A stretch of 64,000 nucleotides of DNA from a virus (IMGVR_UViG_3300013121_000019:68375-132374); one strand, 5' to 3'; counted from the first letter of the stretch, positions 19,725 through 64,000 are shown. Numbers and translations are program-made. Notes: a model not told the origin generated them from the sequence alone.

Positions 19725-22700
19725 TTACTTGATCACGTGCTGCTTGGTCTTGACCTCTTCCACGGTTTTGCCACGGAGCAGATCGCGTAGTTGCTCGTCC
19801 GTGAAGTTCGAACGAGTCCGGGCGCCAGATCTCTGAACCTCATACCTCGGGTCCACATGGTGTGCCCGGTACAGCTTGCCGGATCCAACGGCTACCAGGG
19901 CGGCTGCCGGCAAACCGCTTAGTGCAGCTGCGGGTGACCTCGTTGCGATGGCCGGTAGCGCGGTCATGAGGCCACCGCCAATTAGACCGCTCATTGCGAT
20001 GCGTGCCTTGCTGAAGCGCTTGGCGCCGTCTGTGTTGGCTTCTGGTCGCTTGGCTCGCTCGTAGAATGCACGAAGCCCATCGACGAACTTCTTCTCATCC
20101 ACAGGATCGAGAGCAGCATCGGTGCCATCGCGCTCTAGCTCTCCGCCGAAGCGCTCCCAGTACTTGTTGAACAGGTCCTTCTCGCGGATGTTCTGCTGGT
20201 CGCCGACAATACTGCGGAGCTCGTCAGGTACCTTGCTGACCGGTGCGAACGCTACGTCCATCAGACCCTGTCCGGCGTGGGGCCCAAACACAGCTCCGAG
20301 CACCGGTGTGTACAGGGCTCCGATGTTCGGAATGCCGTGCGTGATGCCGCTGGTGACCGCGCCAAGACCAGCACCACCCGCGGCACCTCCGAGGATTGAC
20401 CCAATTCGTCGGCGAATCCCATACCCGGGATCTTCCTCACGCTGACGCTTGCTCTTGGGTTGCTCGATCGGCAACAGCGCACCGTACAGTGCACCGATGG
20501 CGGCTCCGCCCATTGCCCTTTGAACGCTACCGGTCTTGACGGTGCTGTGCAGGGCCTTGTTCAGTTGTTCCTTGCTGTGCGCCACCCCGTAGACCCACTG
20601 ATCGGGGCTCTTGTCCTTGTGGAACGGGTTGTAGAACACCGGCGCCGACGGATCCTGTAGCCGGTGCAGGATCGCGCTGGGGCTGATGTTGTCCCAGATA
20701 CCAGCGGCGATCTCGCTGAGCCGCTCCTTGCTGGTCGACGGCAGCACCGACACGTAGCGGCGCACCACCACGTTGCGGTCCTCCGGCGCACGATGGCTGA
20801 GACCGCCAGCACGGATGCCCCGTGCTTCCGCCTGGTTGATCCGCTCCGGATTGAAGTGGCCGTCGAGCATTGCCATCATCGTGGTGTTCGGCAGGTCAAG
20901 ACCCTCAGACCCAGCTGCCGAGATCACGATCACCTTCTTCTTGCCGGCTCGGAAGTCCTGCACACCTTGTTGACGGGCGCCCTCGGTGACGCCCTCATTG
21001 CCCTTGCCGATGAACACCGCGTGGTCGATTCCACGTTGTTTCAGACCGGCCTGCAATACGTCAACACCTCCGTGGATGAGGTTCGTGTGGATCACGACCT
21101 GCCCGTCAGACGTCTCACCAAGGTGCTCCTCTACGTCATCGAGAAGTCGCTTGATCTTGGGAGTCTCGATGGCGGAGCGCTCGACCGACACGTTCTTGTC
21201 GATCGTATGGACGGAGTTCGACAGTTGCCGCATCCGGATGATCTTGCTGAACAGGTCGTTGACCTCAGCTCCGTTGAGCGAGCTCGAGTTCAGCCGGTAC
21301 TTCAGTGCGGTGATCGGATCGAGCTTCTTGACGATGAACTTGTAGAGCGCCGCCTGATGCGGAGACATCTCAACCGATACGGTCTCGACGACCTTCTTCG
21401 GCTGGTTCTTCTGCACGTCCTCTGGCGCCACGTAGTGGATGTACGGGGCGATCAGACTGCGTAGTACCTGCGGGTTGTGCAGAACCTTGTTGCCCTGATC
21501 GTCCATCTTGACGAAGCGGCTCTCGAATGCCGACTTCGAGCCCAGCACGTGTTTGCCGTCGGTCATCGCATCGACCAGCGGTACGAGGTCCGCAGGGGTG
21601 TTGCTGACGATCGAGCCGGTCATGCCGATGAAGTTGCGGTGATGAGGTCGTGCCTGCTTGATGGCTTCTGTCGTCAGCACGCCCTCATTCTTCGCCTTGT
21701 GGAGCTCGTCGTAGATGACGGTGTCGGCTCCGGCAGCCCGTACGTACTGGATTGGGTCCTTGCGGAACATGTCGTACGAGACGACGTGGTACCGGGCATG
21801 CGGATCCGGCCGCTCGAGAGATACATGCGTTCCAGCCGCAACCTCTTGGCTGTTGCCGAACACGGCGCCCTTGGCGGCCGTGAACTTCTGAATCCCGTTC
21901 TCCAGGTAGTTCGCACGTAGGCTCGCCGGGGTAACGACGAGGGCCCGGTCTGCCAGACCGAGCCCACGTAGACGCTCAAACCCAGCGATGCTGGTGATGG
22001 TGTTGTGCAGCAGTAGACCGCCTACGCCGGCGACATAGTTCTTCTCGTCGTACTCGTCGCTGTCCACTTCAAGGTCGTAAACGAAACCGCCACGAGCTGA
22101 CTCGTCGACTAGCGTCACCAGCTCGTACCGTACCGCCGGATCCAGCAGGGCCTGTAGCTTGCGTACGCACTCAGTCAGCAGGGCCCGCGACTCCTTGAGG
22201 CATTGCAACGTTCTGGCGCTGTAGCTGCCGGCTGTACCACGTAGCTTGGCCGCTGCCTGCTCGTAGCGCTGTACACCGTCTGGCGACGACAAGAACTTCA
22301 AACGATTGATCAGCTGCCAGCAGCTGTCGGTCGACAACGTCTGCAGATCGCTCTTTCGCGTTAGCTGTAGTGTCTCCCAGGTGAAACCAGCGTCGGTCAG
22401 CTGGTCCAAGATATGCCGAACCGGAATACCGAAGTTTGGGTTACGGGTGCGGCTTGCCACAAGCGCCAACGCACGCTGCTTGTAGTCGGTAGCGAAACCA
22501 ACCTGCAGAAACGCTTCCGCATCCTCGCCACTGAATGACAGACGCCAGTAAGTGCGTCGGATGCGCGTGCCATTCGTGGCCATGCCGGTCTTAGAGTGTA
22601 GCGACGCTCGAACACCGAAGCGTAGCAACGCGTACTGGATCTGGATGGCCAACTCAGGCGATTTGGTGGTCAACTCGACCGATCCCTCGCCGACCGATCC

Positions 22701-23600
22701 CTCGGCATCGAACACGATCCGCAGCGCATCGCGCAGCTGTCGGTTAGACAACTGAAGGAACCAAGCGGGGAATGCCTTGGCGGACGATAGCCTGCCCCAT
22801 GTGTATCCAAGGCTCTCCAGTAGCCGACGATACTCAACAGAAGAGAAGCGCAAGTACGGCGTCTTCATCACGCCTTTGCGGCTCATCTTTGCAGGGCACA
22901 CACTGCCGGTCGTACCGCGCGGCACAACGCGATGAAGACGTTCTTTCAGATCATGAAGCAACGGCAGATTATCCTGCGTGATGCAGCAGCTACCATTGTT
23001 TGGTTGCTCATGCCCCTCGGTGATCTGCCACGACATCAGTGCCAGAATGTCGTCGTCTACCTCGTACGGGTCGATCGGCTCTTCGATTGATCGTGGGACT
23101 ACGGCGAAGTCGCCTTCTTGCACGTAGCCAGCCGCAACCCACACAGCAGCGCCGCCGCGTACGATAGGCAGCGGGTGCTGACGCGTAATGTCGACCATTC
23201 CACCGCGCAGCGTCCCGATGCCGATGGTGGTCTCGGAAGACCGTAGACGCTGTCGGTATAGAGTGCGTACCGGTGTCCACCGGAACGCGCCATCTCGGTA
23301 GGACAGCACCTGCAGACCGTCAGCTGGTAGCGTCAGCTCGTCCTCCGGCCCTTCACGGCGCGTACCGAACAGCGTTTCGATCGCCAGCAGACCTCGGTTA
23401 GTCAGCACCGGCGTGCCACCGCGGACGCATTTCCCAGACCCAACAGGATGCGCAAGCAGCAACTGCCCGCCCTGACGGACGAGCTTGTTGATGGCCTCCT
23501 CCTGATGCTGGTGGAGTTGGACCGACGGCTTCAGACCCGATTGCTCGTTGGCGATCTTGTCGAGCTCGTCGACGAAGCTGGCCAATGTTACGGAGTTCAT
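19725..23600 (-). CDS. SNF2-family helicase/ATPase with intein
   Basis: HPVGSGK|T, IYDELH, GMTGS, AGSEGLDL, QAEARGIR; start MNSVTL at 23600 after GAGGTGAGG. Confidence 0.88.
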   Translation of the reverse strand: MNSVTLASFVDELDKIANEQSGLKPSVQLHQHQEEAINKLVRQGGQLLLAHPVGSGKCVRGGTPVLTNRGLLAIETLFGTRREGPEDELTLPADGLQVLSYRDGAFRWTPVRTLYRQRLRSSETTIGIGTLRGGMVDITRQHPLPIVRGGAAVWVAAGYVQEGDFAVVPRSIEEPIDPYEVDDDILALMSWQITEGHEQPNNGSCCITQDNLPLLHDLKERLHRVVPRGTTGSVCPAKMSRKGVMKTPYLRFSSVEYRRLLESLGYTWGRLSSAKAFPAWFLQLSNRQLRDALRIVFDAEGSVGEGSVELTTKSPELAIQIQYALLRFGVRASLHSKTGMATNGTRIRRTYWRLSFSGEDAEAFLQVGFATDYKQRALALVASRTRNPNFGIPVRHILDQLTDAGFTWETLQLTRKSDLQTLSTDSCWQLINRLKFLSSPDGVQRYEQAAAKLRGTAGSYSARTLQCLKESRALLTECVRKLQALLDPAVRYELVTLVDESARGGFVYDLEVDSDEYDEKNYVAGVGGLLLHNTITSIAGFERLRGLGLADRALVVTPASLRANYLENGIQKFTAAKGAVFGNSQEVAAGTHVSLERPDPHARYHVVSYDMFRKDPIQYVRAAGADTVIYDELHKAKNEGVLTTEAIKQARPHHRNFIGMTGSIVSNTPADLVPLVDAMTDGKHVLGSKSAFESRFVKMDDQGNKVLHNPQVLRSLIAPYIHYVAPEDVQKNQPKKVVETVSVEMSPHQAALYKFIVKKLDPITALKYRLNSSSLNGAEVNDLFSKIIRMRQLSNSVHTIDKNVSVERSAIETPKIKRLLDDVEEHLGETSDGQVVIHTNLIHGGVDVLQAGLKQRGIDHAVFIGKGNEGVTEGARQQGVQDFRAGKKKVIVISAAGSEGLDLPNTTMMAMLDGHFNPERINQAEARGIRAGGLSHRAPEDRNVVVRRYVSVLPSTSKERLSEIAAGIWDNISPSAILHRLQDPSAPVFYNPFHKDKSPDQWVYGVAHSKEQLNKALHSTVKTGSVQRAMGGAAIGALYGALLPIEQPKSKRQREEDPGYGIRRRIGSILGGAAGGAGLGAVTSGITHGIPNIGALYTPVLGAVFGPHAGQGLMDVAFAPVSKVPDELRSIVGDQQNIREKDLFNKYWERFGGELERDGTDAALDPVDEKKFVDGLRAFYERAKRPEANTDGAKRFSKARIAMSGLIGGGLMTALPAIATRSPAAALSGLPAAALVAVGSGKLYRAHHVDPRYEVQRSGARTRSNFTDEQLRDLLRGKTVEEVKTKQHVIK
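22002..23429 (-). mobile_element. intein (476 aa) with LAGLIDADG endonuclease in SNF2 Walker A
   Basis: GSGK|CVRGGT ... FVYDLEV..NYVAG..LLHN|T; WQITEGH and VFDAEGSV blocks. Confidence 0.92.
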
Positions 23601-23620
23601 CCTCACCTCACTGGCCTGCT

Positions 23621-53689: not shown

Positions 53690-55000
53690 CTACTTCGAGA
53701 TCTTGACGGTTGTCGACAGGATGCCGGCTAGCGCGCCAGCCTGCACAGGGGGAGAGGACATGACGTGCGTGTGGGTTGCCAGCCAGGCTAGGAGCTGGAT
53801 GCCCATCGGTAGCGGCTCTACCGGCACCCCATCGGTCTTCTGCATCGTGATTCCACCAAGCGCGCGCATGTCGATGGATCCCAGCAGCGTCGTCAAGGCA
53901 ATGTTGCCAATCAACGTCTTGATGTCGATGTCGCCTTTCAGCGCGCGTACGACGATGTCACGAATGAGCGTTTCGATCGTAATGCCGCCAGCGGGTCCGA
54001 TAGATCGGAGAATGAGCGACTTAGTTGGTGAGATCAACACCTCACCGGAGAAGTCGATCTTCATATCGCCAGCGCCCTTCATCAGCGCATTGCCAGCGTC
54101 ATCGAATGTCTGACGAAACTGGATCGGTTGCTTGTTGTAGTCGCCGGTGTTGGCGTCGAAGCCACCTGGAGCGATCACGAAGTCGTACACGATGTTGCCA
54201 CTGATGGACCCTTCGGCGGCTGGTTCTTTGCCGAAAGCGTTGCCGTGGGTCACGCGGATATCAGCGTACTTGTCGTCAGCCCACACACGGTACACTTCCA
54301 TGTGTCTCGTGGGCGACTTCGCCGCGTCGTCCGGGGTGATGTCCTGCAGCCCCCATTGGATGGTGCCGCCGGTGTTGCGGTGCGCGTAGTTGCCGGAGAT
54401 GTCTTCGATGAAGTTTCCGATGGGCAGGAAGATCCGCTGGGCGATCTCCGATGCACCGATCTGTACGACCCCGCCCCTGTGCAGGATGAGGAAGTTGTCG
54501 TCGCGCGTACGCATCACGATGTCGCCCATGAGCGCGTCCGGTCGGCCGCCATAGAATGACGCATCGGTGGACCTGCCGGTGCTCGAGCGCGACACAGTGC
54601 CGGTCGGAGCATCACCGCCAACGATCGCGCTAGGGTCAGCCTTCTTGACCCCATCGGGGCCCGTCACCACTACGTCGTCGACGGAGCCCTGCACGCCGCC
54701 ATCCGATGCCACCACTTCCATCGGCATGACGAAGCACATGACGAATGGCGCCGTGGTGTCGCTCGGGATCATCACTTTGCACACAGCGCCAACGTCGGGC
54801 ATGCAGTACACGCCCTCGCCGTTGTTGAAGTGCACGTAGGGAGACCCAACCTGGATGTCGTTCAGCGTCTTCTGGTCGAAGGAGCTGGCTACGTCCACGG
54901 TCCAGTTCTTCATGTTGACGTCGACAACCCGGCCCTCGAGGCAGAGGGCCGGGTCCGTGCCGGCGTCACTGGTCATCGTGTTGCGGAAAGACTTCGGCAT
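53690..55000 (-). CDS. baseplate central spike (GpV/gp138-like)
   Basis: N-terminal OB-fold (EGRVVDVN..GVYCMPDVGAVC), beta-helix repeats, C-terminal ATHTH metal-binding tip. Confidence 0.75.
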   Translation of the reverse strand: MPKSFRNTMTSDAGTDPALCLEGRVVDVNMKNWTVDVASSFDQKTLNDIQVGSPYVHFNNGEGVYCMPDVGAVCKVMIPSDTTAPFVMCFVMPMEVVASDGGVQGSVDDVVVTGPDGVKKADPSAIVGGDAPTGTVSRSSTGRSTDASFYGGRPDALMGDIVMRTRDDNFLILHRGGVVQIGASEIAQRIFLPIGNFIEDISGNYAHRNTGGTIQWGLQDITPDDAAKSPTRHMEVYRVWADDKYADIRVTHGNAFGKEPAAEGSISGNIVYDFVIAPGGFDANTGDYNKQPIQFRQTFDDAGNALMKGAGDMKIDFSGEVLISPTKSLILRSIGPAGGITIETLIRDIVVRALKGDIDIKTLIGNIALTTLLGSIDMRALGGITMQKTDGVPVEPLPMGIQLLAWLATHTHVMSSPPVQAGALAGILSTTVKISK

Positions 55001-55001
55001 G

Positions 55002-58000
55002 TCAGTAGTGGTGCGTCGGAACGTCCTTGAGGTGGCTGTACTGCGGCTTCTTGGAGTCGGTCGACGTGAGGCCAAACTCTACCGCGTAGGCGGAGCCCGG
55101 CACAGGGTGTGTGCCGTGGATGCTCGAAGAGCCGTGAGTTGCGGCCGCGTCGAGGATGGTCGCCGAGATGTGGTTGTGCTGCAGCTTCGCCATCCAGTCT
55201 TCTTGCACCGACAGCGGGAGCATGCTGACGCCCTGAAGCGTCGGCTCGTGCTGGATGGGGCGCTTGCCCTTCAGCTGTGTGGCGTTGATGTGGTTGACGA
55301 CGCTGGTCGGGTGGAACTCCCCACGTAGGATCGTCGGGTGGTCACCCGGGTTGGTGACCTTCGTGAGGTTGCCCATCGCCTTCACGACGATCTCCGATTG
55401 CAGACGGCGCACCCCCTCGTCCTTGAACAGCTGATGGAGCTCGTTCGCCAGGTGCCCCTGGACGACGTCCATGCGGCCCGTTGCCTCCAGCAGCGCGTGC
55501 GGGTTCATGACGGTGCGACTAGGGTCACCCAGCGGCTGCCCCGCCGTGACTTTCATGCCGACCTTCGGCGGTTCCCACCCTTCAACTGGGGCACCGGGCA
55601 GCGGGTGGTGCAGCAGGTTACCTGCGTGGTCACGCCCAACGTGGTGTGGCTTCCCGTCGACGTGGATGGTGGCGCCTGTGCGGTCAACAGAGATGTTGTC
55701 GATCGTGCCACTACGCATGGCCAGTGGTGTTGCGTCCGGCAACGTCTTCGGCAGGTTGGTGAGCTGCTCGAGCTTCGTCAGACCGCCGACCAGCGTGCCG
55801 CCTCCACCAGCTGCACCACCCGTGTGGAACACGCGCATCGACAGCTGCACCGCTCGCTCCCCTAGCGTCTGCGCGGCCACCACACCGGCGTTGGTACCGA
55901 TCGGGGTCAGGCCACCGGAGGTGGTCAGGCCAAGGCACTTCTGGCAGAAGCCATGTGAGTGCTCGCACTTCAACGGACTGCGCACGACCAACGTGGCGTC
56001 CTTCTTGGCTGCGCGAATGCGGTCTACCAGCGATGGAGTCAGAACCGTTCCGGCAGGGATCTCCAGACCGTTCGCCTTGAAGGGCTGTGCCAGGAAGCGG
56101 TCATGAACGTCCGTCGTGTTGCGCCCGTGCTTGTCCACGACCGGCAGCGCGATGCCCTTGTCGGTGCCGCAGTCGGGCTCCGCCACGACCATGTGCATCG
56201 ACGAGTTCATCATGAGTTTCGTCAGGTAGCCGGGACGCTGCACCTCCTGCACCTTCATCACCGTTCCACGGCGCGCTCCGTACATCTGCGTCCAGTACCC
56301 GCCAAGATCTAGGCCCTCCGAGTAGTTCTTTGTGACCGGGATCGGGATGTCGCGACCCAGCGAATCCTGGAACGTCATCGGCGCCAAGACCAGCTGCTTG
56401 TACTGTGTCCACCCGGGCTTGTCGCCGGAGGTGGCCATCAGCGTGAGGTTCGACGGGTTCGAGTCCATGTGGCTCTTGTGCAGCTTCTTCATCTCAGCGT
56501 CGGCTGCCTTCCAGACCTCCACGGCGCGTCGCTCTTTTTCTGGCTCGCGCAGCGACGACTTGTTGATGGCATCGACCTTAGCCTGCGCCGCCATGACGAC
56601 GGTCGCGCGGGTCTTGTTGTCGGGAGTGAAGTCAGAAAGGCTCAGCGTGTGCGCCCCAATAGGCACGTCTTTTCCGATGAGTGTCTGCGGAATCACCCCG
56701 AATGCCGCGCCGTTCCCCAGATCCTTCAGCTTGTTTGCCACCGTGCCGAAGTCAGGCGCGTGATCTCGCGCCAACGTCGTCATGACGTGCGACAACTTGT
56801 CGGACGTCAGTACGTTGTCCATCGAGCCAAGCAGGTACGGGCGCATCGCGGTCGGAAGCGTGTTGGCCACCAGGACTCTGCCGGGCGTCGTTTCCGTTCC
56901 ACCAACCTTCACGACGTCGGAGTACTTCAGTTGCCCGTTCTTGAACGCCTCCGTCACAGCGTCGTGGGAAGAGAACGTATGGGAGGTCTTCTGCCCAGGG
57001 ATCGTCAGCCGGTAGACGCCCAGCAACGACTCCTTGGTCGGTTGGTACATGACTTTGCCCGTCGCCTCATTGAAGAGGTTTGCCGACGGCATCATCTTCT
57101 TGGCCTCCTGCACCGCATCGTGCGCGATCGGCACGTAGAGGCTCACCATGTCTCCGTCAAAGTCTGCGTTGTAGGACCCGCAGATCAACGGATGCACCTG
57201 GATCGCGGTGCCGTTCACGATGCGCGGCTTGAACCCCTGGACGTTGTACTTGTGCAGCGCTGGGTCGCGCTTCATCAGCACGGGGCGCTCTGCGATCACT
57301 TCGTTCAACGCGTGATTCACGAGCTCGCCGTTCTTGGCCAAGTGCTCCTGCGCCACGATCGGCGCCATGCCGGTGTTGACCAGCTTGTTGACGATGAACG
57401 GCCTGAAGAGCTTGACCGCGACGTCACGCGGGATACCCACTTCATCGAGACCTAGTGCCGGCTCAGGAACGATGACGGAGCGTGCCGTCAGGTCCTGTCG
57501 ACGGCTCATCAGGGTCTTCTGGAAGAAGCCCTTCTTCGGTTGGATGCCCTGGATCGTGTGCAACAGTCCCTTCTGATCTGCGCGATCGTACGGAATGCCA
57601 ACCCCCATCAGGGCCTTGACGCCGTCGTACAACGACTTCCGAAGATCGACACGAAACTGCGGCGGTGCCTTCAGCTTCAGGCCGGGTTTCGCTAGCTGCT
57701 CGTTCAGCATCGCGAACTGCACGTAGAGCCCGTTGATGTCGTCGTAGCGGATGTCGCCAGACGGCAACACCGTGACAGGGCGCATGGCGGGCGGTAGTAC
57801 CGGTAGATGGTGCAGCACGTACGCGTCTGCTGCTCCGATCTTCAGCTGGTCTAGCGCGCGCAGGTACTTTGCTCGCTTCAGGAAGTCGTTGATCTTGGCA
57901 GACTTGTTGGACGAGGCAGACAGAAGGGCCAACGTCTTCTTGAGCTCAGCCTGAACATCGATCTTCTTCAGGGCCGCCTCGATGGCCGTGCCGCCGGTCA

Positions 58001-61000
58001 GGCCCTGGTGTGGCTCGACCACGTGCCCGGCTGCCGACAGCCCCTTGGTGCCGGCCACGATAGCGTCGAACTCGTTGCCCTTGAGGTGCAGCAACGAGCA
58101 GATCGGCTCCTCGAACGTCGGGTTAGGTAGCGGCTCCGCCAGCGCGATGTGGCTCCATTTGGTTCCACCGAACCCGCCGGTCAGCTTCTCATCGAACAGA
58201 CCGCCCTTGAGCTCCTTGACGTCCTTCGCACGTACCACCTTGATCGGGTCGGGAATGGCGCCGGCCGACAAGCGCAGGATCTGTTGATCCGTAAGAGGGG
58301 ACAGAACGAAGTTGTGCCCCTTCTTCTCCATGTTGATGCCGGCACCGCGCAAGTACGACTCGAACTTCTTGAAGGCGAACGTCGGCTGCGGTGTCGGTAG
58401 CGGCGTACCTCGCTGGATGGCGCCCCATACCTCGGCGTGCTGGGACACGTGCCCGCCCTTGACGTTCACGTCCTCCGTTGGCGTACCCTCGGACTTCCAC
58501 GTGTTCATCTCGCGGATGTTGGCCTTGGCGCCATGTGCGAGGAGCGCGTAGTAGCCGAGGCTGCCGATCGACTGCCCGCCCTGGTGCCCGCCACCAACAG
58601 GCTGCATGTTCGAATCGTAGTGTTCCTTGGCTGGCTGACCCGGCAGCCCCATTCCGGACCGCACCGATACCTTCTTCTCGACCTGATGCACGAGCTTGTG
58701 GAGGTACTGGTGCCCAACAAGTACCTCCCCAAGAGGCAGCTTCGTCAGCGGATCGATCAGCTTCTCCGTGTCCTTGATGCCGTGTGCGGCCAGATCCGAC
58801 TTGATCTTGTCGAGGTAGTTCACCCCAGGATCGAAGTTGCGAACCGCGTACGGCTTGCCCATCTTCAAGGCGATCTTCGAGGCGGCGGTCTCGAACAGCT
58901 GCGCAGGGTTCATACGTCCCGGCACGCCAAACGGGTTCAGCAACACGTCGACAGGCTTACCGTGCTCGTCGTGTGGCATCTCGTGGTCTGGAATGATGCG
59001 CGTGACGACGCCCTTGTTGGCGGAGCGACCAGCGATCTTGTCGCCGACCTGCATGGACTCCGCAGTGCGCACGTGCACGACGATGTCCTTGCCCTTACGG
59101 TGCGTAGCGATCACCTCGCCGGGATGCTCGGAGTCCCACGCTACGGAGGCGTTGGAGTGATGGGCGGCGAGGCTCTTGTGGATATGCGCCAGCGATGTCT
59201 TGTCTTGCACAGCCAGAGGGCGCAGTGCCACAACCAGAGGGTCTCCAGGCTTCACGATTGTCCCAACGTGGACAACACCGTCGTCACCGATCGTGCTGAG
59301 CTGCTCCTTCGTGTAGACGCCGGGGTGATGAATGTTGAACTTTCGCTTGTCCAAGATCACCGTGTCGTCTGTGCGAAGGCTGGGCTTGTACAGGTGGTTC
59401 GACGTGAACTTCTTTGCAGCCGACTCGCTGATGACAACACCGTCCTCGAAGTTCAGTCCCTTGTAGGGGATGTACGCGACGCGCATGTTGGTGCCGAGCG
59501 CCATGACGCCGTTCTTGGAGAAGTTGGTGTCGGCGATGGTCTGCTTGCTCTTGACGGTGTCTCCAGCCTTTACCAGCGGGATAGACGTGATCATCGCCCG
59601 GGGGTCATTCAGCGGGTAGTGGTCGTACAGTGGCACGTCATGCGCCGTGCCGTCCTTGTCCTTGATGATGATGCTGTCCCGGCGTACCTGGTGAACCGTA
59701 CCGTCGACAGGAGACTGGTGCGACGCTACGTTCCCAAGTACTTCCTCGAACGTGGTGTTGCCGACGCCGGTCTTCACCTGCACAAGCGGCGGCTCGCGGT
59801 GGACCAGCGAGATGGCCTGCTCCATGTGCCTGCCGGCCATCGACGCGCGAGGGCCAGACACCGAAGGCAGCATCGGGATCAAGTTCGACCCGATGTCCCA
59901 CAGCTGTGTGGCCTGCGGAAGCACGTAGTCGGCCTCGCTGATCGGCTTCTTCGAGATATGGTTGCCGACACCCATCGTGCTGACCGACGGGTACAGCGCC
60001 TTCGGTGTCCCGTCGGGTTTCCAAGAGACCTGATCAGGAAGAACCACGTTCGACTGCAAGAACGTTGCCGGGTTGATCCACTCGAGCTTCTTGGTCTTGG
60101 TGTTGTACGCTCGAAGCTGAGCCTCGGATCCGTTCTTGCGCACGCCGAGCGGTAGCCGCAGCGTGATGCCGGTCTTCTCGCCCTCCGGCGTGTGCAGCGG
60201 GTCGATGAATCCGAAGTGGCTCTGGTTGATGAGCTTGGAGCTCTCCATCACCTTGTGCGCCGACTGGATGCCACCGGGCCCCATGACGGTCGTCTGCATG
60301 GAGCTGGCTACCATCTCAAGCGGGTTGATCTGGTCAGGCACCCGGGCGAGAGACGAGCGGAACATCGCGCGTACGGGCTCGTTGAAGAACTCCGTCTTGA
60401 ACGCCTCACGCACGTTGGTGGCGCTATCGATGGTTCGCTGCACCTTAGTGCGGATGCGCGGAATTGCCTGACGAATGTGATCTGCAGCGAACTCACCAGC
60501 CGACCGCAGCGACTTGAAGATCAGGCTGTCGCGGTCATCTTCCGGTTGCCCGTCATGTACGGACAGCAGCCGCTTGGTGGCGGCCGTCATCGCTTCGCCA
60601 GAAGCAAACTCAAACGGGCGCCCGAGCGTCAGCTTGGTCATATCTGGACGAAGCTTCGAGTTGAACAGCAGCGTCCGTAGGTGCTCGACCGCGGCCTCGT
60701 GCGACGGCGGTGCCTCTCCGACTTCCGACTTGTAGAACTTCATCAGCACGCCGGCGGCCCCGCGTACATCCTTGTTGGCTTCCAGGATGTCCTTGCCCCA
60801 CGCGCGCTCGAGTTCCGGATCCGTCATCCCCGCGGCGTGCAGGATCGGGTAAAGCGGCAGATTGCTCTTACCCCAGTTGAACACGAACTGCTTCTTGTCC
60901 GGGTGAAACACGATGTCGAAAGAGCCACGACCAGCCAGGTTGAATCGGCTTTCGAGCTCACCGTTCTGACGTCGACGCGTGTACACGCCCGGGTTCAGCT

Positions 61001-61346
61001 GCCACTGGTTCTCCAGCTGGTACTCCTGCCCACCAACGATGTAGCTGTACCTTCCGCGCGTCATCTTCGGAAGATCCACAAGCTTGACCTTGCGACGGTC
61101 CAACACCTTTCCGGTGGCGTTGTCTCGCAGCGTCACACGGCCGAAGACAGGAACTCCCCAGGTATCCCCGGAGATCTTGGCCTGGTGCTGCGCTTTGATG
61201 TCGTCGGCCTTCGGAACGTGGCCGAACTCCACATCCTCGAGGTGCAGCGACTGCTTGGCACCAGTCAGAGGGAAGTGCTTCTTGATCTCGTCAACGGTCT
61301 GATCGCGCAGAACGTTGAAGCCTTCTTCGGGATTGACGTATGTCAT
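55002..61346 (-). CDS. rpoBC: DNA-directed RNA polymerase, fused beta-beta' single polypeptide
   Basis: Beta motifs GFIDPLHTPEG, GLNFEDG, GDKIAGRSANKGV, LNPFGVPGRMN, GGQSIG; beta' motifs RSVIVP, KRDPALH, YNADFDGD, GARRG, GYLTK, DCGT, VRSPLKC, AAQTLGERAVQLSMRVFHTGG. Confidence 0.95.
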   Translation of the reverse strand: MTYVNPEEGFNVLRDQTVDEIKKHFPLTGAKQSLHLEDVEFGHVPKADDIKAQHQAKISGDTWGVPVFGRVTLRDNATGKVLDRRKVKLVDLPKMTRGRYSYIVGGQEYQLENQWQLNPGVYTRRRQNGELESRFNLAGRGSFDIVFHPDKKQFVFNWGKSNLPLYPILHAAGMTDPELERAWGKDILEANKDVRGAAGVLMKFYKSEVGEAPPSHEAAVEHLRTLLFNSKLRPDMTKLTLGRPFEFASGEAMTAATKRLLSVHDGQPEDDRDSLIFKSLRSAGEFAADHIRQAIPRIRTKVQRTIDSATNVREAFKTEFFNEPVRAMFRSSLARVPDQINPLEMVASSMQTTVMGPGGIQSAHKVMESSKLINQSHFGFIDPLHTPEGEKTGITLRLPLGVRKNGSEAQLRAYNTKTKKLEWINPATFLQSNVVLPDQVSWKPDGTPKALYPSVSTMGVGNHISKKPISEADYVLPQATQLWDIGSNLIPMLPSVSGPRASMAGRHMEQAISLVHREPPLVQVKTGVGNTTFEEVLGNVASHQSPVDGTVHQVRRDSIIIKDKDGTAHDVPLYDHYPLNDPRAMITSIPLVKAGDTVKSKQTIADTNFSKNGVMALGTNMRVAYIPYKGLNFEDGVVISESAAKKFTSNHLYKPSLRTDDTVILDKRKFNIHHPGVYTKEQLSTIGDDGVVHVGTIVKPGDPLVVALRPLAVQDKTSLAHIHKSLAAHHSNASVAWDSEHPGEVIATHRKGKDIVVHVRTAESMQVGDKIAGRSANKGVVTRIIPDHEMPHDEHGKPVDVLLNPFGVPGRMNPAQLFETAASKIALKMGKPYAVRNFDPGVNYLDKIKSDLAAHGIKDTEKLIDPLTKLPLGEVLVGHQYLHKLVHQVEKKVSVRSGMGLPGQPAKEHYDSNMQPVGGGHQGGQSIGSLGYYALLAHGAKANIREMNTWKSEGTPTEDVNVKGGHVSQHAEVWGAIQRGTPLPTPQPTFAFKKFESYLRGAGINMEKKGHNFVLSPLTDQQILRLSAGAIPDPIKVVRAKDVKELKGGLFDEKLTGGFGGTKWSHIALAEPLPNPTFEEPICSLLHLKGNEFDAIVAGTKGLSAAGHVVEPHQGLTGGTAIEAALKKIDVQAELKKTLALLSASSNKSAKINDFLKRAKYLRALDQLKIGAADAYVLHHLPVLPPAMRPVTVLPSGDIRYDDINGLYVQFAMLNEQLAKPGLKLKAPPQFRVDLRKSLYDGVKALMGVGIPYDRADQKGLLHTIQGIQPKKGFFQKTLMSRRQDLTARSVIVPEPALGLDEVGIPRDVAVKLFRPFIVNKLVNTGMAPIVAQEHLAKNGELVNHALNEVIAERPVLMKRDPALHKYNVQGFKPRIVNGTAIQVHPLICGSYNADFDGDMVSLYVPIAHDAVQEAKKMMPSANLFNEATGKVMYQPTKESLLGVYRLTIPGQKTSHTFSSHDAVTEAFKNGQLKYSDVVKVGGTETTPGRVLVANTLPTAMRPYLLGSMDNVLTSDKLSHVMTTLARDHAPDFGTVANKLKDLGNGAAFGVIPQTLIGKDVPIGAHTLSLSDFTPDNKTRATVVMAAQAKVDAINKSSLREPEKERRAVEVWKAADAEMKKLHKSHMDSNPSNLTLMATSGDKPGWTQYKQLVLAPMTFQDSLGRDIPIPVTKNYSEGLDLGGYWTQMYGARRGTVMKVQEVQRPGYLTKLMMNSSMHMVVAEPDCGTDKGIALPVVDKHGRNTTDVHDRFLAQPFKANGLEIPAGTVLTPSLVDRIRAAKKDATLVVRSPLKCEHSHGFCQKCLGLTTSGGLTPIGTNAGVVAAQTLGERAVQLSMRVFHTGGAAGGGGTLVGGLTKLEQLTNLPKTLPDATPLAMRSGTIDNISVDRTGATIHVDGKPHHVGRDHAGNLLHHPLPGAPVEGWEPPKVGMKVTAGQPLGDPSRTVMNPHALLEATGRMDVVQGHLANELHQLFKDEGVRRLQSEIVVKAMGNLTKVTNPGDHPTILRGEFHPTSVVNHINATQLKGKRPIQHEPTLQGVSMLPLSVQEDWMAKLQHNHISATILDAAATHGSSSIHGTHPVPGSAYAVEFGLTSTDSKKPQYSHLKDVPTHHY

Positions 61347-61444: not shown

Positions 61445-61462
61445 GGCATAACAGCATTGAGA
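61445..61462 (+). promoter_or_regulatory. phage promoter motif variant GGCATAAC-N6-GAGA
   Basis: Heads the rightward operon, divergent from RNAP. Confidence 0.6.
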
Positions 61463-61744: not shown

Positions 61745-62341
61745 GTGATCATCAATCCTTACCGCGAGCCCCTCCAGACGTACCCAGACAGTAACCTGCT
61801 GGTAGACGACTTCGGGCTGACCAACGTTGAGATAGACGATACCGTCGACACCTCACGAGTGTGGACAGTCCAAGGTGTCTACCGGCCCCATCCGGGCCGT
61901 GTGCTGGGCGGACTACGCATTCGGCTCACGGACCCGGATGGGTTCGTTTCATTCGTCAATCAACGGGACCTCGAGGTGCTGCTTGGCCTCGCTGAACCCG
62001 GCACGCTCTGCAGGTGGTCTGGTCGCGAGTACCCAAGGCCAGGCACGCCCAACTGGTACGGTGTCTGCTGCGACGAGTACGACCTACAGGACGACCTGTA
62101 CATGCGCGAGTTGGAGCTCAGATTCGACTTCAAGGATCAGCGTTTCTGCTTGCCGCAAGGTGTGGAGTGCTCTCGGCGAGTGCATCTGGAGCACGGCAAA
62201 GATGTGTTCGAGCGCTTTTGGCTGCTGGGCGACGTTGGACCGGACGGAGTATCGCCGGACATGCACCGTAGCCGCGTTTCTCTTCGGTGGGTTCGCCTAG
62301 AGCGCACAACACTGGAAAAGGTTGGTGGCCAATGGCTGTAG
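61745..62341 (+). CDS. hypothetical protein
   Basis: GTG start after GAGG. Confidence 0.7.
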   Translation: MIINPYREPLQTYPDSNLLVDDFGLTNVEIDDTVDTSRVWTVQGVYRPHPGRVLGGLRIRLTDPDGFVSFVNQRDLEVLLGLAEPGTLCRWSGREYPRPGTPNWYGVCCDEYDLQDDLYMRELELRFDFKDQRFCLPQGVECSRRVHLEHGKDVFERFWLLGDVGPDGVSPDMHRSRVSLRWVRLERTTLEKVGGQWL

Positions 62342-62979
62342 TGCGGTATCCGGGGTTCGGTAGACGTGCGCCGCCGGAAGTGCGGCTTTCGGGGGAGCAC
62401 TGCTACCAGTGCGGTGAAGAGTTCGTCTACGGTGAGTTCGTTACGCTCGTACAAGGCGTGTGGCTGGAGCACGACGCGGAAAGTAACGAACTGGCCATGC
62501 CGCCGATCATCAGTGAAGTTGGCGAGCCGCTTTATGAGCCGAGGCTATTCCACGAAGGGTGCTTCGATTCCACGCTAGCGCACATGCGCGCAGCGGCCGC
62601 TGATGTCCTGCCGATCCGAACAACGGACTCGTGGAGGGACTGCACCTGCTGCACCAATTCGGTACTGCTGGGGGAGAAGTGCGCTCTGGTCGAGATCGGT
62701 CGACTAGAGGCACGTGGCGGTAATCTGCACGCATTCGAGGGTAAGCGAGACGCTGGCATCATCTGCATGATCTGTGTGAACCGGCTAGCCGACGATTTCG
62801 AAGCCAGCGATGCCGGTACTGAGATCTGGGATGAGATGGCGCAAGACCAAGAATGCAGCAGCTGCACCGACGACATGTGCTGGCGTGACCCTGGCTGTGA
62901 CTGCCCTTGTCATGATGAAGACGAGGAAGACGACAACGAAGAAGAGGATGAGGAGGATACGGATGCCGCTTATCGATGA
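62332..62979 (+). CDS. Cys-rich zinc-finger-like protein with acidic tail
   Basis: CxxC, HxxC, CxxC, CxxC pairs and a C-terminal Cys cluster. Confidence 0.7.
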   Translation: MAVVRYPGFGRRAPPEVRLSGEHCYQCGEEFVYGEFVTLVQGVWLEHDAESNELAMPPIISEVGEPLYEPRLFHEGCFDSTLAHMRAAAADVLPIRTTDSWRDCTCCTNSVLLGEKCALVEIGRLEARGGNLHAFEGKRDAGIICMICVNRLADDFEASDAGTEIWDEMAQDQECSSCTDDMCWRDPGCDCPCHDEDEEDDNEEEDEEDTDAAYR

Positions 62980-63145
62980 GCTCAAACTGAGTAAGACCAA
63001 CAGGCTGATCCTCGAGGAGTGGGTTCGTACGAACGACTGGGGTGTCGTGAAGAAGAACCTGAACGTGACCGACGCGGAGATCAACAGCGCCAAGCGCGTC
63101 GCAGTCGCGAAGGCCGCGCGGGCACAGTCGGAGAGGGCACGATGA
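62963..63145 (+). CDS. small hypothetical protein
   Basis: AGGAGG RBS; ATGA overlap with next gene. Confidence 0.6.
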   Translation: MPLIDELKLSKTNRLILEEWVRTNDWGVVKKNLNVTDAEINSAKRVAVAKAARAQSERAR

Positions 63146-63558
63146 CCACGTACGATGAGTGGATGGCGTCCAAGTGGAGTAAAGTCGTCTGGGTGACGAG
63201 CTGCTCCGTTAGCCTAAACGACCTGCGGAGGCACGTCAGCATGAACAACCTGGTGCTGGACCACTACACGGAGCTACGCGGAGATGTGCCGTCCGGCATC
63301 CAAGCCGAGCTCGCAGACTCGATCGTCGACAGGATGGTCAACGTGATGAGCCACACGGTGGTGGTGACGCTCATGGAGCTCCCGCTGCTGCGGCTACTGC
63401 GACAGGTGCGGGAGGGACACATCGGCGGCCGGCAGGTCGACGTCATCGTGCTGTCCAAGGATCTGACACCGCACACCCTGCGGGTCGACAACACCGGAGA
63501 GTTCGTGGACGTGTGGCCCGAGGGCTTCTTCGAGGAACGCGCCAAGGAGCTGTTCTGA
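63142..63558 (+). CDS. stand-alone DUF3696-like/ABC-ATPase C-terminal fragment
   Basis: IQAELAD..LLRLLRQVREG..LRVDNTGEFVDVWPEGFFEERAKELF. Confidence 0.7.
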   Translation: MTTYDEWMASKWSKVVWVTSCSVSLNDLRRHVSMNNLVLDHYTELRGDVPSGIQAELADSIVDRMVNVMSHTVVVTLMELPLLRLLRQVREGHIGGRQVDVIVLSKDLTPHTLRVDNTGEFVDVWPEGFFEERAKELF

Positions 63559-64000
63559 TGTGGTCCTGGTCGCATACCGCGGAGGCGTACGAGAACCTTC
63601 AGCTGCGGATTGCAGACCAGGATAGGAAGTGGCTCGAGGTGGTTTGGGGCGAATGGAAAGCCTCCACCTCGGGTCATTTTCTACCTACTGCGCCTAGCCA
63701 TGACTTCGATGAGCGTCGATACCTGCGGGCCAACGCGGCTGCCAAGCAGCTGTCGACCGAAGAACTGGTCTCCCGCATCTACGCGCTGGCCGAGCGTCAG
63801 TCTCTGTGCACCAACGGCGGGTGGGAGGCTATGTGCTGCCCGTACCACTGCGGTGTCCACACGTTGGCGTTCTCTGCGCCGCGATACGTGGTCGTGTGGG
63901 ACAACGGACACGCATCCGGTCGACTGCCCGACGTACACCACGCACACGCCGACGCTGTCGACTATGGTGAAAGTTGGTTGATCGACATGATCGCGGCAGA
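63558..64000 (+). CDS. hypothetical protein, runs off window end (not in ORF track)
   Basis: ATG overlaps upstream TGA; open frame MWSWSHTAEAYENL... to end of window. Confidence 0.65.
   Translation, partial: MWSWSHTAEAYENLQLRIADQDRKWLEVVWGEWKASTSGHFLPTAPSHDFDERRYLRANAAAKQLSTEELVSRIYALAERQSLCTNGGWEAMCCPYHCGVHTLAFSAPRYVVVWDNGHASGRLPDVHHAHADAVDYGESWLIDMIAA

Follow-up and report, generated by a model that had tools for sequence, protein, structure and literature searches.

A single-chain bacterial-type RNA polymerase gene and a candidate partner sigma factor in a family of largely uncultured phages

RNA polymerases (RNAPs) of the multisubunit type are already known from phages. Those of the phiKZ/AR9 type are alpha-less two-barrel enzymes of cellular ancestry that are divided among four to five polypeptides; the phages carry two paralogous sets and no sigma70-family factor (PMC7824862), and one of the sets is packaged in virions (PMC7598289, PMC7824862). 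In gp66 of the crAss-like phage phi14:2, and in the RNAP of P23-45 that is fused to the tape measure protein, both barrels lie in one large, virion-borne chain. The crAss-type single chains have no similarity to cellular beta or beta' that is detectable with hidden Markov models (HMMs) (PMC7481178). Here we describe an RNAP gene from an uncultured wastewater phage, found in IMG/VR record IMGVR_UViG_3300013121_000019. The stretch analysed ("the window") comprises the final 64 kb of this linear record of 132,374 bp (G000), for which CheckV gives a completeness of 72%. The gene encodes a protein of 2114 amino acids (aa), P0001. What sets this locus apart is a single chain that aligns nearly full-length with bacterial beta and beta', together with a sigma70-family factor, P0125 (labelled a sigma-like protein below where the evidence is discussed), in phages in which we found no alpha or omega genes. 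Like the phiKZ-type enzymes it is a phage-encoded RNAP of cellular ancestry with two barrels and no phage alpha, but here there is one chain, one copy per complete genome, and a sigma-like gene.

The nearest isolates in the INPHARED database are the Vibrio phages D69, D148 and D181 and the Salmonella phage Arash (OQ632216), at 31-34% identity. Arash and D69 resemble the window phage in that one chain joins beta to the N-terminal, catalytic half of beta' and in that each genome has one RNAP set, and their proteins fall in one clade with P0001 (Shimodaira-Hasegawa-like approximate likelihood ratio test, SH-aLRT, 100). Arash-type phages also share a homologous sigma70-family gene, a genome of ~180-190 kb and a related terminase. 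They differ in that beta' is broken at the equivalent of P0001 aa 1482-1487, giving proteins of 1525-1527 aa and ~606 aa, whereas beta' is continuous in P0001. The two resulting genes of Arash (Gp206 and Gp216) are 4.7 kb apart. In addition, Arash has its portal gene immediately upstream of that for the RNAP, which is not the case in the window, and a tblastn search of the G000 record with the Arash portal gave no match. The Arash paper labels Gp206 "subunit beta" and leaves the fusion undiscussed (PMC10585845). Our literature search, which covered few subscription journals, found no description of a fully fused cell-like phage RNAP. Two observations concern the split itself: the break in Arash Gp206 and in D69 gene 0261 (L001/L002) coincides with the end of the profile for cyanobacterial gamma (rpoC1), and the region spanned by the RNAP match in D148 and D181 contains a homing endonuclease gene.

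P0001 is encoded by one open reading frame (ORF), the ATG of which follows a GGAG by 6 nt, and its N-terminus aligns with those of its relatives (Table 1). Pfam domains occur in the order beta then beta': Rpb2_3 (aa 337-398, 33.2 bits), Rpb2_6 (aa 548-897, 189 bits), Rpb1_2 (aa 1345-1419, 105.9 bits) and Rpb1_5 (aa 1678-1865, 48.8 bits) all exceed their gathering cut-offs, and Rpb1_1 (aa 1171-1253) is weak, at 22.2 bits against a cut-off of 39.7. The E values of the RNAP domains run from 1e-55 to 1e-30, and the protein can be aligned with cellular subunits over nearly 2000 columns; phiKZ/AR9-type enzymes are far more divergent, with PHROG matches to fragments only. To map the chain residue by residue, we aligned P0001 and seven relatives with beta and beta' of Salmonella (E. 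coli numbering) and Staphylococcus using MAFFT. At about aa 1008 the beta C-terminus (...GINME; the counterpart of E. coli 1321-1339) passes through the three residues KKG into beta', which starts at about its residue 17, with no linker. A first-pass annotation, made from the sequence of the window, had described a single 2114-aa ORF with beta before beta' joined at about 58320; the ORF, the Pfam order and the mapped junction all agree with this description, and the NADFDGD motif it reported is placed correctly to the base.

The catalytic apparatus is preserved. The alignment confirms that the bridge helix and trigger loop are intact, as had been claimed; they align with E. coli beta' 778-805 and 932-945, with the trigger loop at about aa 1837-1850. 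Switch 2 and the clamp helices are also kept, as is the second zinc site of beta', the fourth cysteine of which is C1726, located upstream in DCGT. In 27 relatives at 53-56% identity, D1395, D1397, D1399, K770 and K778 are invariant, and so are the bridge helix Gly/Arg and the cysteines of the second zinc site. P0001 shares with bacterial RpoB and RpoC the domain order, NADFDGD, the beta lysines, the bridge helix, the trigger loop, switch 2, the clamp helices and the second zinc site, and it shares with the fused proteins of Helicobacter and Wolbachia the polarity of the fusion, from beta C-terminus to beta' N-terminus.

The chain had been estimated to be roughly 600 aa shorter than E. coli beta plus beta', and we measured a deficit of 635 aa relative to the enterobacterial pair (1342 + 1407 aa). 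About 467 of these residues belong to SI1, SI2, beta-i11 and SI3, which are lineage-specific inserts absent from many bacteria too; relative to Staphylococcus (2390 aa) the deficit is 276 aa. The first three of these inserts, together with E. coli regions 4-31, are missing from the beta module, and SI3 is missing from the beta' module. Apart from these inserts, the chain has lost beta 4-31, parts of the beta lobe, beta' 127-151 and 555-571, and the whole four-Cys zinc-binding domain at the N-terminus of beta'. This last domain (E. coli beta' 64-99) is cleanly deleted in all relatives aligned, leaving a Cys-free GFGG in P0001. The rifampicin pocket is substituted at the classical resistance positions (Q513R, H526S, R529Q and S531T in E. 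coli numbering), and because these positions read R, S, Q and T, P0001 would be expected to be insensitive to rifampicin.

Table 1. Coordinates of the RNAP gene, its parts and associated features (window positions, except for the sigma-like gene, which is given in the coordinates of the whole record G000)
Feature	Position	Strand	Basis or remark
Single-chain beta-beta' RNAP gene, P0001	55002..61346	-	2114 aa, internal stops 0
beta module, aa 1-1008	58322..61346	-	MAFFT map against Salmonella/Staphylococcus beta; Pfam Rpb2_3, Rpb2_6
Equivalent of rifampicin-pocket cluster I, aa 328-359	60270..60365	-	alignment
Active-site lysine motif of beta double-psi barrel, GDKIAGRSANKG, aa 768-779	59010..59045	-	alignment
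beta/beta' junction, aa 998-1023	58278..58355	-	peptide identified in the first-pass annotation
beta' module, aa 1009-2114	55005..58321	-	alignment; Pfam Rpb1_2, Rpb1_5
Deletion site of beta' N-terminal four-Cys zinc-binding domain	58164..58178	-	alignment
beta' clamp helices, aa 1199-1242	57621..57752	-	alignment; interface of complex model
Catalytic Mg-binding motif NADFDGD, aa 1393-1399	57150..57170	-	exact match
Bridge helix, aa 1690-1719	56190..56279	-	alignment
Second zinc site of beta', three Cys (C1794, C1801, C1804)	55935..55967	-	alignment
Trigger loop N-terminal arm, MRVFHTGGAAGGGG, SI3 insert absent	55797..55838	-	alignment
Promoter-like motif core, GGCATAAC	61445..61452	+	intergenic, upstream of RNAP gene
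Probable central baseplate spike/hub, 436 aa (gpV/gp5/VgrG-like)	53690..55000	-	weak but consistent matches
Large terminase, gpA-type ATPase PF05876, 979 aa	46925-49864	-	Pfam/PHROGs
sigma70-family gene, P0125, 250 aa	G000:14437-15189	-	Pfam, orthologues, hhalign, AF2/Foldseek

Fused RNAPs of this kind are widespread: hundreds of related phages are built in this way, and more than 120 database proteins match as one ORF with 100% coverage. In a search of 5.8 billion proteins, 4384 matches were significant. The 119 with the best scores, query excluded, are 51-55% identical to P0001; most are 2119-2163 aa long and cover 99-100% of the query, while a minority are longer (to ~2900 aa), mostly by virtue of a LAGLIDADG intein, and the contigs reach 200 kb. 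IMG/VR contains 69 loci (L009-L077) in which the match lies in one uninterrupted ORF, including a deep clade at 32% identity. Many of the relatives' contigs there are 185-193 kb long, several with terminal repeats, and each of five relatives at 99-100% completeness has exactly one RNAP copy. We are nearly certain that the fused RNAP is a real, active enzyme and that its gene belongs to the core of a phage family that is very large, has genomes of ~185-195 kb and is almost entirely uncultured. Inteins are common in the RNAP genes of the family: many relatives (P0022, P0056, P0063, P0072 and L067 of genome G005, among others) have intein-bearing ORFs of 2400-3259 aa, and in G005:76432-84339 (L067) the intein is inserted directly after NADFDGDM (query aa 1400), in the catalytic loop.

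We next considered where the enzyme comes from. Compared over 1989 shared columns with 34 bacterial beta+beta' pairs that represent ~15 phyla, P0001 shows 24-28% identity, and these pairs share 46.8-85% identity among themselves. Over the most conserved 211 aa, bacterial rpoC products reach only 36-43% identity and no phylum stands out, in a sample of 600 hits from a scan of one genome per prokaryotic species. In an IQ-TREE phylogeny of 54 rows (LG+G4), all 34 bacterial rows are on one side of a branch (SH-aLRT 100), and the same is true of all 18 bacterial rows in a tree of 28 rows built with a mixture model (LG+C20+F+G4 with posterior mean site frequencies; support 99). The fused phage proteins, Arash and D69 form one clade (support 100), outside all sampled bacterial phyla. 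Within it, the mixture-model tree has a fused clade as the earliest branch and places Arash and D69 as sister to the main fused clade (support 94). With a root on the bacterial branch, the Arash-type split of beta' would be derived. The first-pass annotation had named nesting within a bacterial clade as the mark of a recent capture; P0001 nests in no bacterial clade that we sampled.

Such a capture nevertheless has to be weighed, as natural beta-beta' fusions occur in bacteria and the best NCBIfam matches of P0001 are models of fused proteins, which is what one might see if the phage had recently acquired a bacterial rpoB-rpoC (for instance a naturally fused one, as in Helicobacter or Wolbachia) or carried an auxiliary gene with no role of its own. 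The scores, however, fall far under every equivalog cut-off (474 vs 5372 bits for the fused model PRK09603, 458.6 vs 963.5 for rpoC_TIGR and 281.9 vs 801 for rpoB), and the identity to bacteria is flat, even in the conserved 211 aa. The Helicobacter and Wolbachia fusions nest in their own phyla, away from the phage clade, so the phage fusion is independent of them. We therefore give recent capture next to no credence. The same holds for an artefact of assembly or a frameshift that joined two genes, or for a decayed gene, in favour of which we can cite only that the record is a metagenomic contig. The same uninterrupted ORF is present on well over a hundred independent contigs, its catalytic residues are invariant, and contigs from four public sequencing runs, drawn from three studies (wastewater, aquatic and one unlabelled), which cover the gene in part, match it at >=99% with zero indels. 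One of them, from run X1, spans 57757-58514, that is the beta/beta' junction, with 0 differences, a run that is possibly the very sample from which the window was assembled. Because the single ORF is conserved in relatives, chance and misassembly are excluded.

A further possibility is that P0001 has in effect already been described, as a member of the multimeric-RNAP-encoding Caudovirales (mReC; Weinheimer and Aylward 2020). Both are metagenomic tailed phages with alignable, deep-branching homologues of beta and beta'. In part 10 of 14 of the mReC Supplementary Data 2, however, the entries have separate beta and beta' ORFs of 900-1520 aa. Some mReC genomes have the order beta' then beta, and some have two sets. 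The hallmarks of the lineage are a T4-type capsid protein (PF07068) and a terminase of PF03237 (Terminase_6N) (PMC7481178). Both families are absent from G000, G001 and G005, and the terminase here is of the gpA type (PF05876); both are present in G006, and enzymes of the G006 type, with separate beta' and beta genes, sit on a different long branch of the tree. Membership of P0001 in the mReC lineage is thus very improbable.

The candidate second component of the system is the sigma-like gene, which is located 53 kb before the window in the same phage record. It was reached by way of weak Sigma70_r2 matches in relatives, which led to a conserved gene and from there to its orthologue in G000; the Sigma70_r2 profile by itself has no match in G000, tblastn of Arash Gp10 against the G000 record has none either, and a word-based protein search with P0125 recovers one relative only. 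P0125 scores 28 bits with Sigma70_r3 (PF04539; cut-off 25.3), its orthologues score 31.6-42.1, and Arash Gp10 is also above the cut-off. Motifs resembling regions 2 and 4 are visible in the alignment, and the NCBIfam FliA/WhiG model gives 27.9 against a cut-off of 189.6. Orthologues are present in 11 of 11 relatives that are >=90% complete (fetched genome by genome). A comparison of P0125 with Arash Gp10 by hhalign gives a probability of 99.8% (E 4.6e-29), and the gene is collinear with Arash in the order gp6-gp8-sigma-gp13. In an AlphaFold2 (AF2) model of P0125 the predicted local distance difference test (pLDDT) score is 86, and all 50 of the top 50 Foldseek matches in the PDB are sigma factors, aligned full-length, with a best E value of 2.5e-7.

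Sigma seated on the clamp helices of beta' is the textbook arrangement, and P0125 is predicted to dock there as well. A model of RNAP aa 947-1345 with P0125 scored 0.82, and the best of three controls 0.00; among solved complexes 58 of 80 attain the 0.82 mark, as do 2 of 110 mismatched pairs, counts that are only rough because our own alignments were used for the complex model. Contacts agreed between runs to at least 71%, and the partner had a pLDDT of at least 76. The modelled interface places the RNAP clamp helices (1199-1242) against sigma 39-46, 64-83 and 111-117, which is the canonical contact between clamp helices and region 2. We think it probable that the fused RNAP works with P0125. 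No further sigma-like gene turned up when the 132-kb record was searched with HMMs. In the complete 191-kb relative G003, an extra sigma of the extracytoplasmic function (ECF) type is encoded besides the conserved FliA-like one (G003:C1:157921-158433, L089/L093; 195 aa), with Sigma70_r2 and r4 both above cut-off.

Searches for alpha (PF01000, PF01193) and omega (PF01192) found none in G000 or in the complete relatives G001, G002, G003 and G005 (G001 and G005 being 99-100% complete), with 14 of 14 positive controls recovered. The first-pass annotation had proposed that the enzyme may work without alpha or sigma. The alpha part of this suggestion is in keeping with the missing alpha gene in G000 and its four complete relatives, and the sigma part has to be given up in view of a sigma70-family gene that is encoded in the phage and in all 11 relatives, has a homologue in Arash Gp10 and yields a protein predicted to dock on the clamp helices.

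A candidate promoter element also recurs in the record. The window contains 5 copies of the motif GGYATAAS-N6-GAAG where chance would give 0.47, and 8 exact copies are present in the whole record. The core listed in Table 1, upstream of the RNAP gene, is directed away from it, toward the divergent gene at 61745-62341. Two other fetched loci have the exact motif (L044:2905-2922 and L071:2899-2916, minus strand) in the same place, ~80-100 nt upstream of the RNAP gene and pointing away; most fetched loci carry ~3 kb of flank, so that they say little on the conservation of the motif. The sigma gene is preceded by GGCATAAC-N6-GACA and then GGAG, a variant of the motif at G000:C1:15190-15225 (L098:2191-2226, minus strand). 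Because this variant is directly upstream, transcription of the sigma gene may start from a promoter of the same class.

The first-pass annotation had placed the RNAP gene among virion genes, and the neighbourhood bears this out: the gene stands in a structural and packaging block, with a spike-like gene next to it and the large terminase 5 kb downstream. The spike-like ORF does abut the RNAP gene as stated, its ATG beginning one base after the RNAP stop codon, but its identity as a baseplate spike is weakly supported. It matches neither Pfam nor PHROGs; its ESM Atlas neighbours are gpV, gp5 and VgrG (score 0.95); its top Foldseek matches are spikes of phi92 and of type VI secretion systems, at E 0.016-0.04 and with none at E <=0.001; and the VIA comparison gives Z 5-6 to the P2 gpV and phi92 spikes, in a list where all Z are <=6.4 and generic beta-rich folds are intermixed. 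In at least 44 relatives the RNAP gene is followed by a homologue of this ORF, in the conserved order RNAP, 436-aa homologue, a gene of ~650-720 aa, a gene of ~315-340 aa and the gpA-type large terminase. Upstream, relatives have a divergent MoxR/DUF2201 pair. In the window, divergent genes at 61745-63998 (+) match the relatives' genes of 194 and 183 aa that precede the MoxR AAA+/DUF2201 pair, and the record ends before the pair itself.

Other features of the neighbourhood are as follows. Nine of ten neighbouring ORFs (436, 679, 339, 214, 302, 306, 526, 341 and 299 aa) have no match in Pfam or PHROGs, nor do most of the large upstream ORFs, and ESM Atlas returned nothing usable for the 679-aa ORF. 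The terminase contains a LAGLIDADG intein at about aa 425-775; the terminases of relatives are 592-601 aa long. A helicase-like ORF of 1293 aa lies at window 19725-23606 (-) and matches phrog_62 (DNA helicase). In Arash, the "DNA helicase" Gp217 comes directly after the gene for the C-terminal part of beta' and is abundant in particles, and jumbo-phage RNAPs co-occur with a Swi2/Snf2 helicase (PMC7824862). The 1293-aa ORF may encode a RapA-like partner of the polymerase.

If the RNAP is made with the virion proteins, is it packaged with them? Mass spectrometry of Arash particles recorded 3516 spectra for Gp206, the highest count of all proteins, 1210 for Gp216 and 467 for the sigma homologue Gp10 (PMC10585845). 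By analogy with Arash, we lean toward the fused RNAP being packaged in the virion, although by a modest degree. The alternative is a non-virion RNAP: the host RNAP would read the early genes, including those for the phage RNAP and sigma, and the phage enzyme would then serve middle and late genes without being packaged, as do T7 RNAP and the non-virion RNAP of phiKZ. The virion data do concern Arash rather than the fused members, its high counts are perhaps carry-over, and a globular chain of 235 kDa would have to unfold to traverse the tail. Against this, the gene heads a co-directional block of spike-like, structural and terminase genes, as is typical of late virion genes, and a consensus scan of 53-64 kb found 0 sigma70-type promoter-like sites where 2.2 are expected. 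Arash Gp206 also has the top spectral count, with the sigma homologue present beside it, and large virion RNAPs have precedents in N4 and the crAss-like phages. A non-virion enzyme is accordingly a possible but rather unlikely explanation.

Altogether, the explanation we favour, with moderate confidence, is a bacterial-type holoenzyme of two proteins, a single-chain core and a phage sigma, that is core to a large uncultured phage family. The fusion, the lack of alpha and omega genes in the phage and the missing lineage inserts suggest that the single chain would fold into the crab-claw core without an alpha-dimer scaffold. Promoters would most likely be recognized through the phage sigma70-family factor, of 250 aa and FliA/sigma-28-like build, with region 2 docked on the beta' clamp helices in the manner modelled; this sigma probably reads the -10-like motif GGYATAAS-N6-GAAG. 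Because the RNAP gene heads the spike, structural and terminase block, and because the Arash homologues and sigma are abundant in particles, the enzyme is probably made late, packaged and injected, and would then start early transcription. It probably serves later transcription too, since it is the sole RNAP gene in the complete relatives. The phage would then be independent of the host RNAP and, given the altered pocket, insensitive to rifampicin.

Several points weigh against this explanation. The Arash particles came from a sucrose gradient, in a fraction where ribonucleotide reductases and RNA ligases were found too (PMC10585845), and because non-structural enzymes are present, carry-over of abundant late proteins is possible, as the Arash authors say. 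The virion evidence comes from this distant isolate, and the fused members are known from their genes. The record of the window is 72% complete. For P0125, the Pfam scores of sigma regions 2 and 4 are weak and below cut-off, and the complex model demonstrates likeness rather than binding, because the arrangement is a textbook one that may have been remembered from solved structures. That the enzyme is alpha-less is deduced from phage genes that were not found, and alpha, omega or sigma of the host might be used. The trees are unrooted, with long branches meeting and warnings of compositional bias, and that the motif is the promoter of the enzyme is something we purely infer.

A stronger version of the proposal can be entertained, tentatively: an injected two-protein machine, comprising a core without alpha or omega and a sigma-28-like factor recognizing a -10-only promoter, with both proteins packaged and independent of the host RNAP throughout infection, from a lineage that pre-dates the sampled bacterial phyla and in which the fused state is ancestral and the Arash-type split derived. 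We regard this full version as doubtful.

RNAP and sigma in one phage are an unusual combination; in a comparison of jumbo phages, those with their own RNAP have no sigma and those with a sigma have no RNAP (PMC7824862). Should the pair of RNAP and sigma prove self-sufficient, it would rank as the smallest natural holoenzyme of bacterial type, and as a tractable model for asking why alpha, omega and the zinc domain of beta' are needed. It would also be a candidate orthogonal transcription module, probably insensitive to rifampicin. The family is essentially without cultured members save its distant relatives Arash and the Vibrio phages, and the fused RNAP would give a high-information marker for the deep history of these very abundant phages of ~190 kb.

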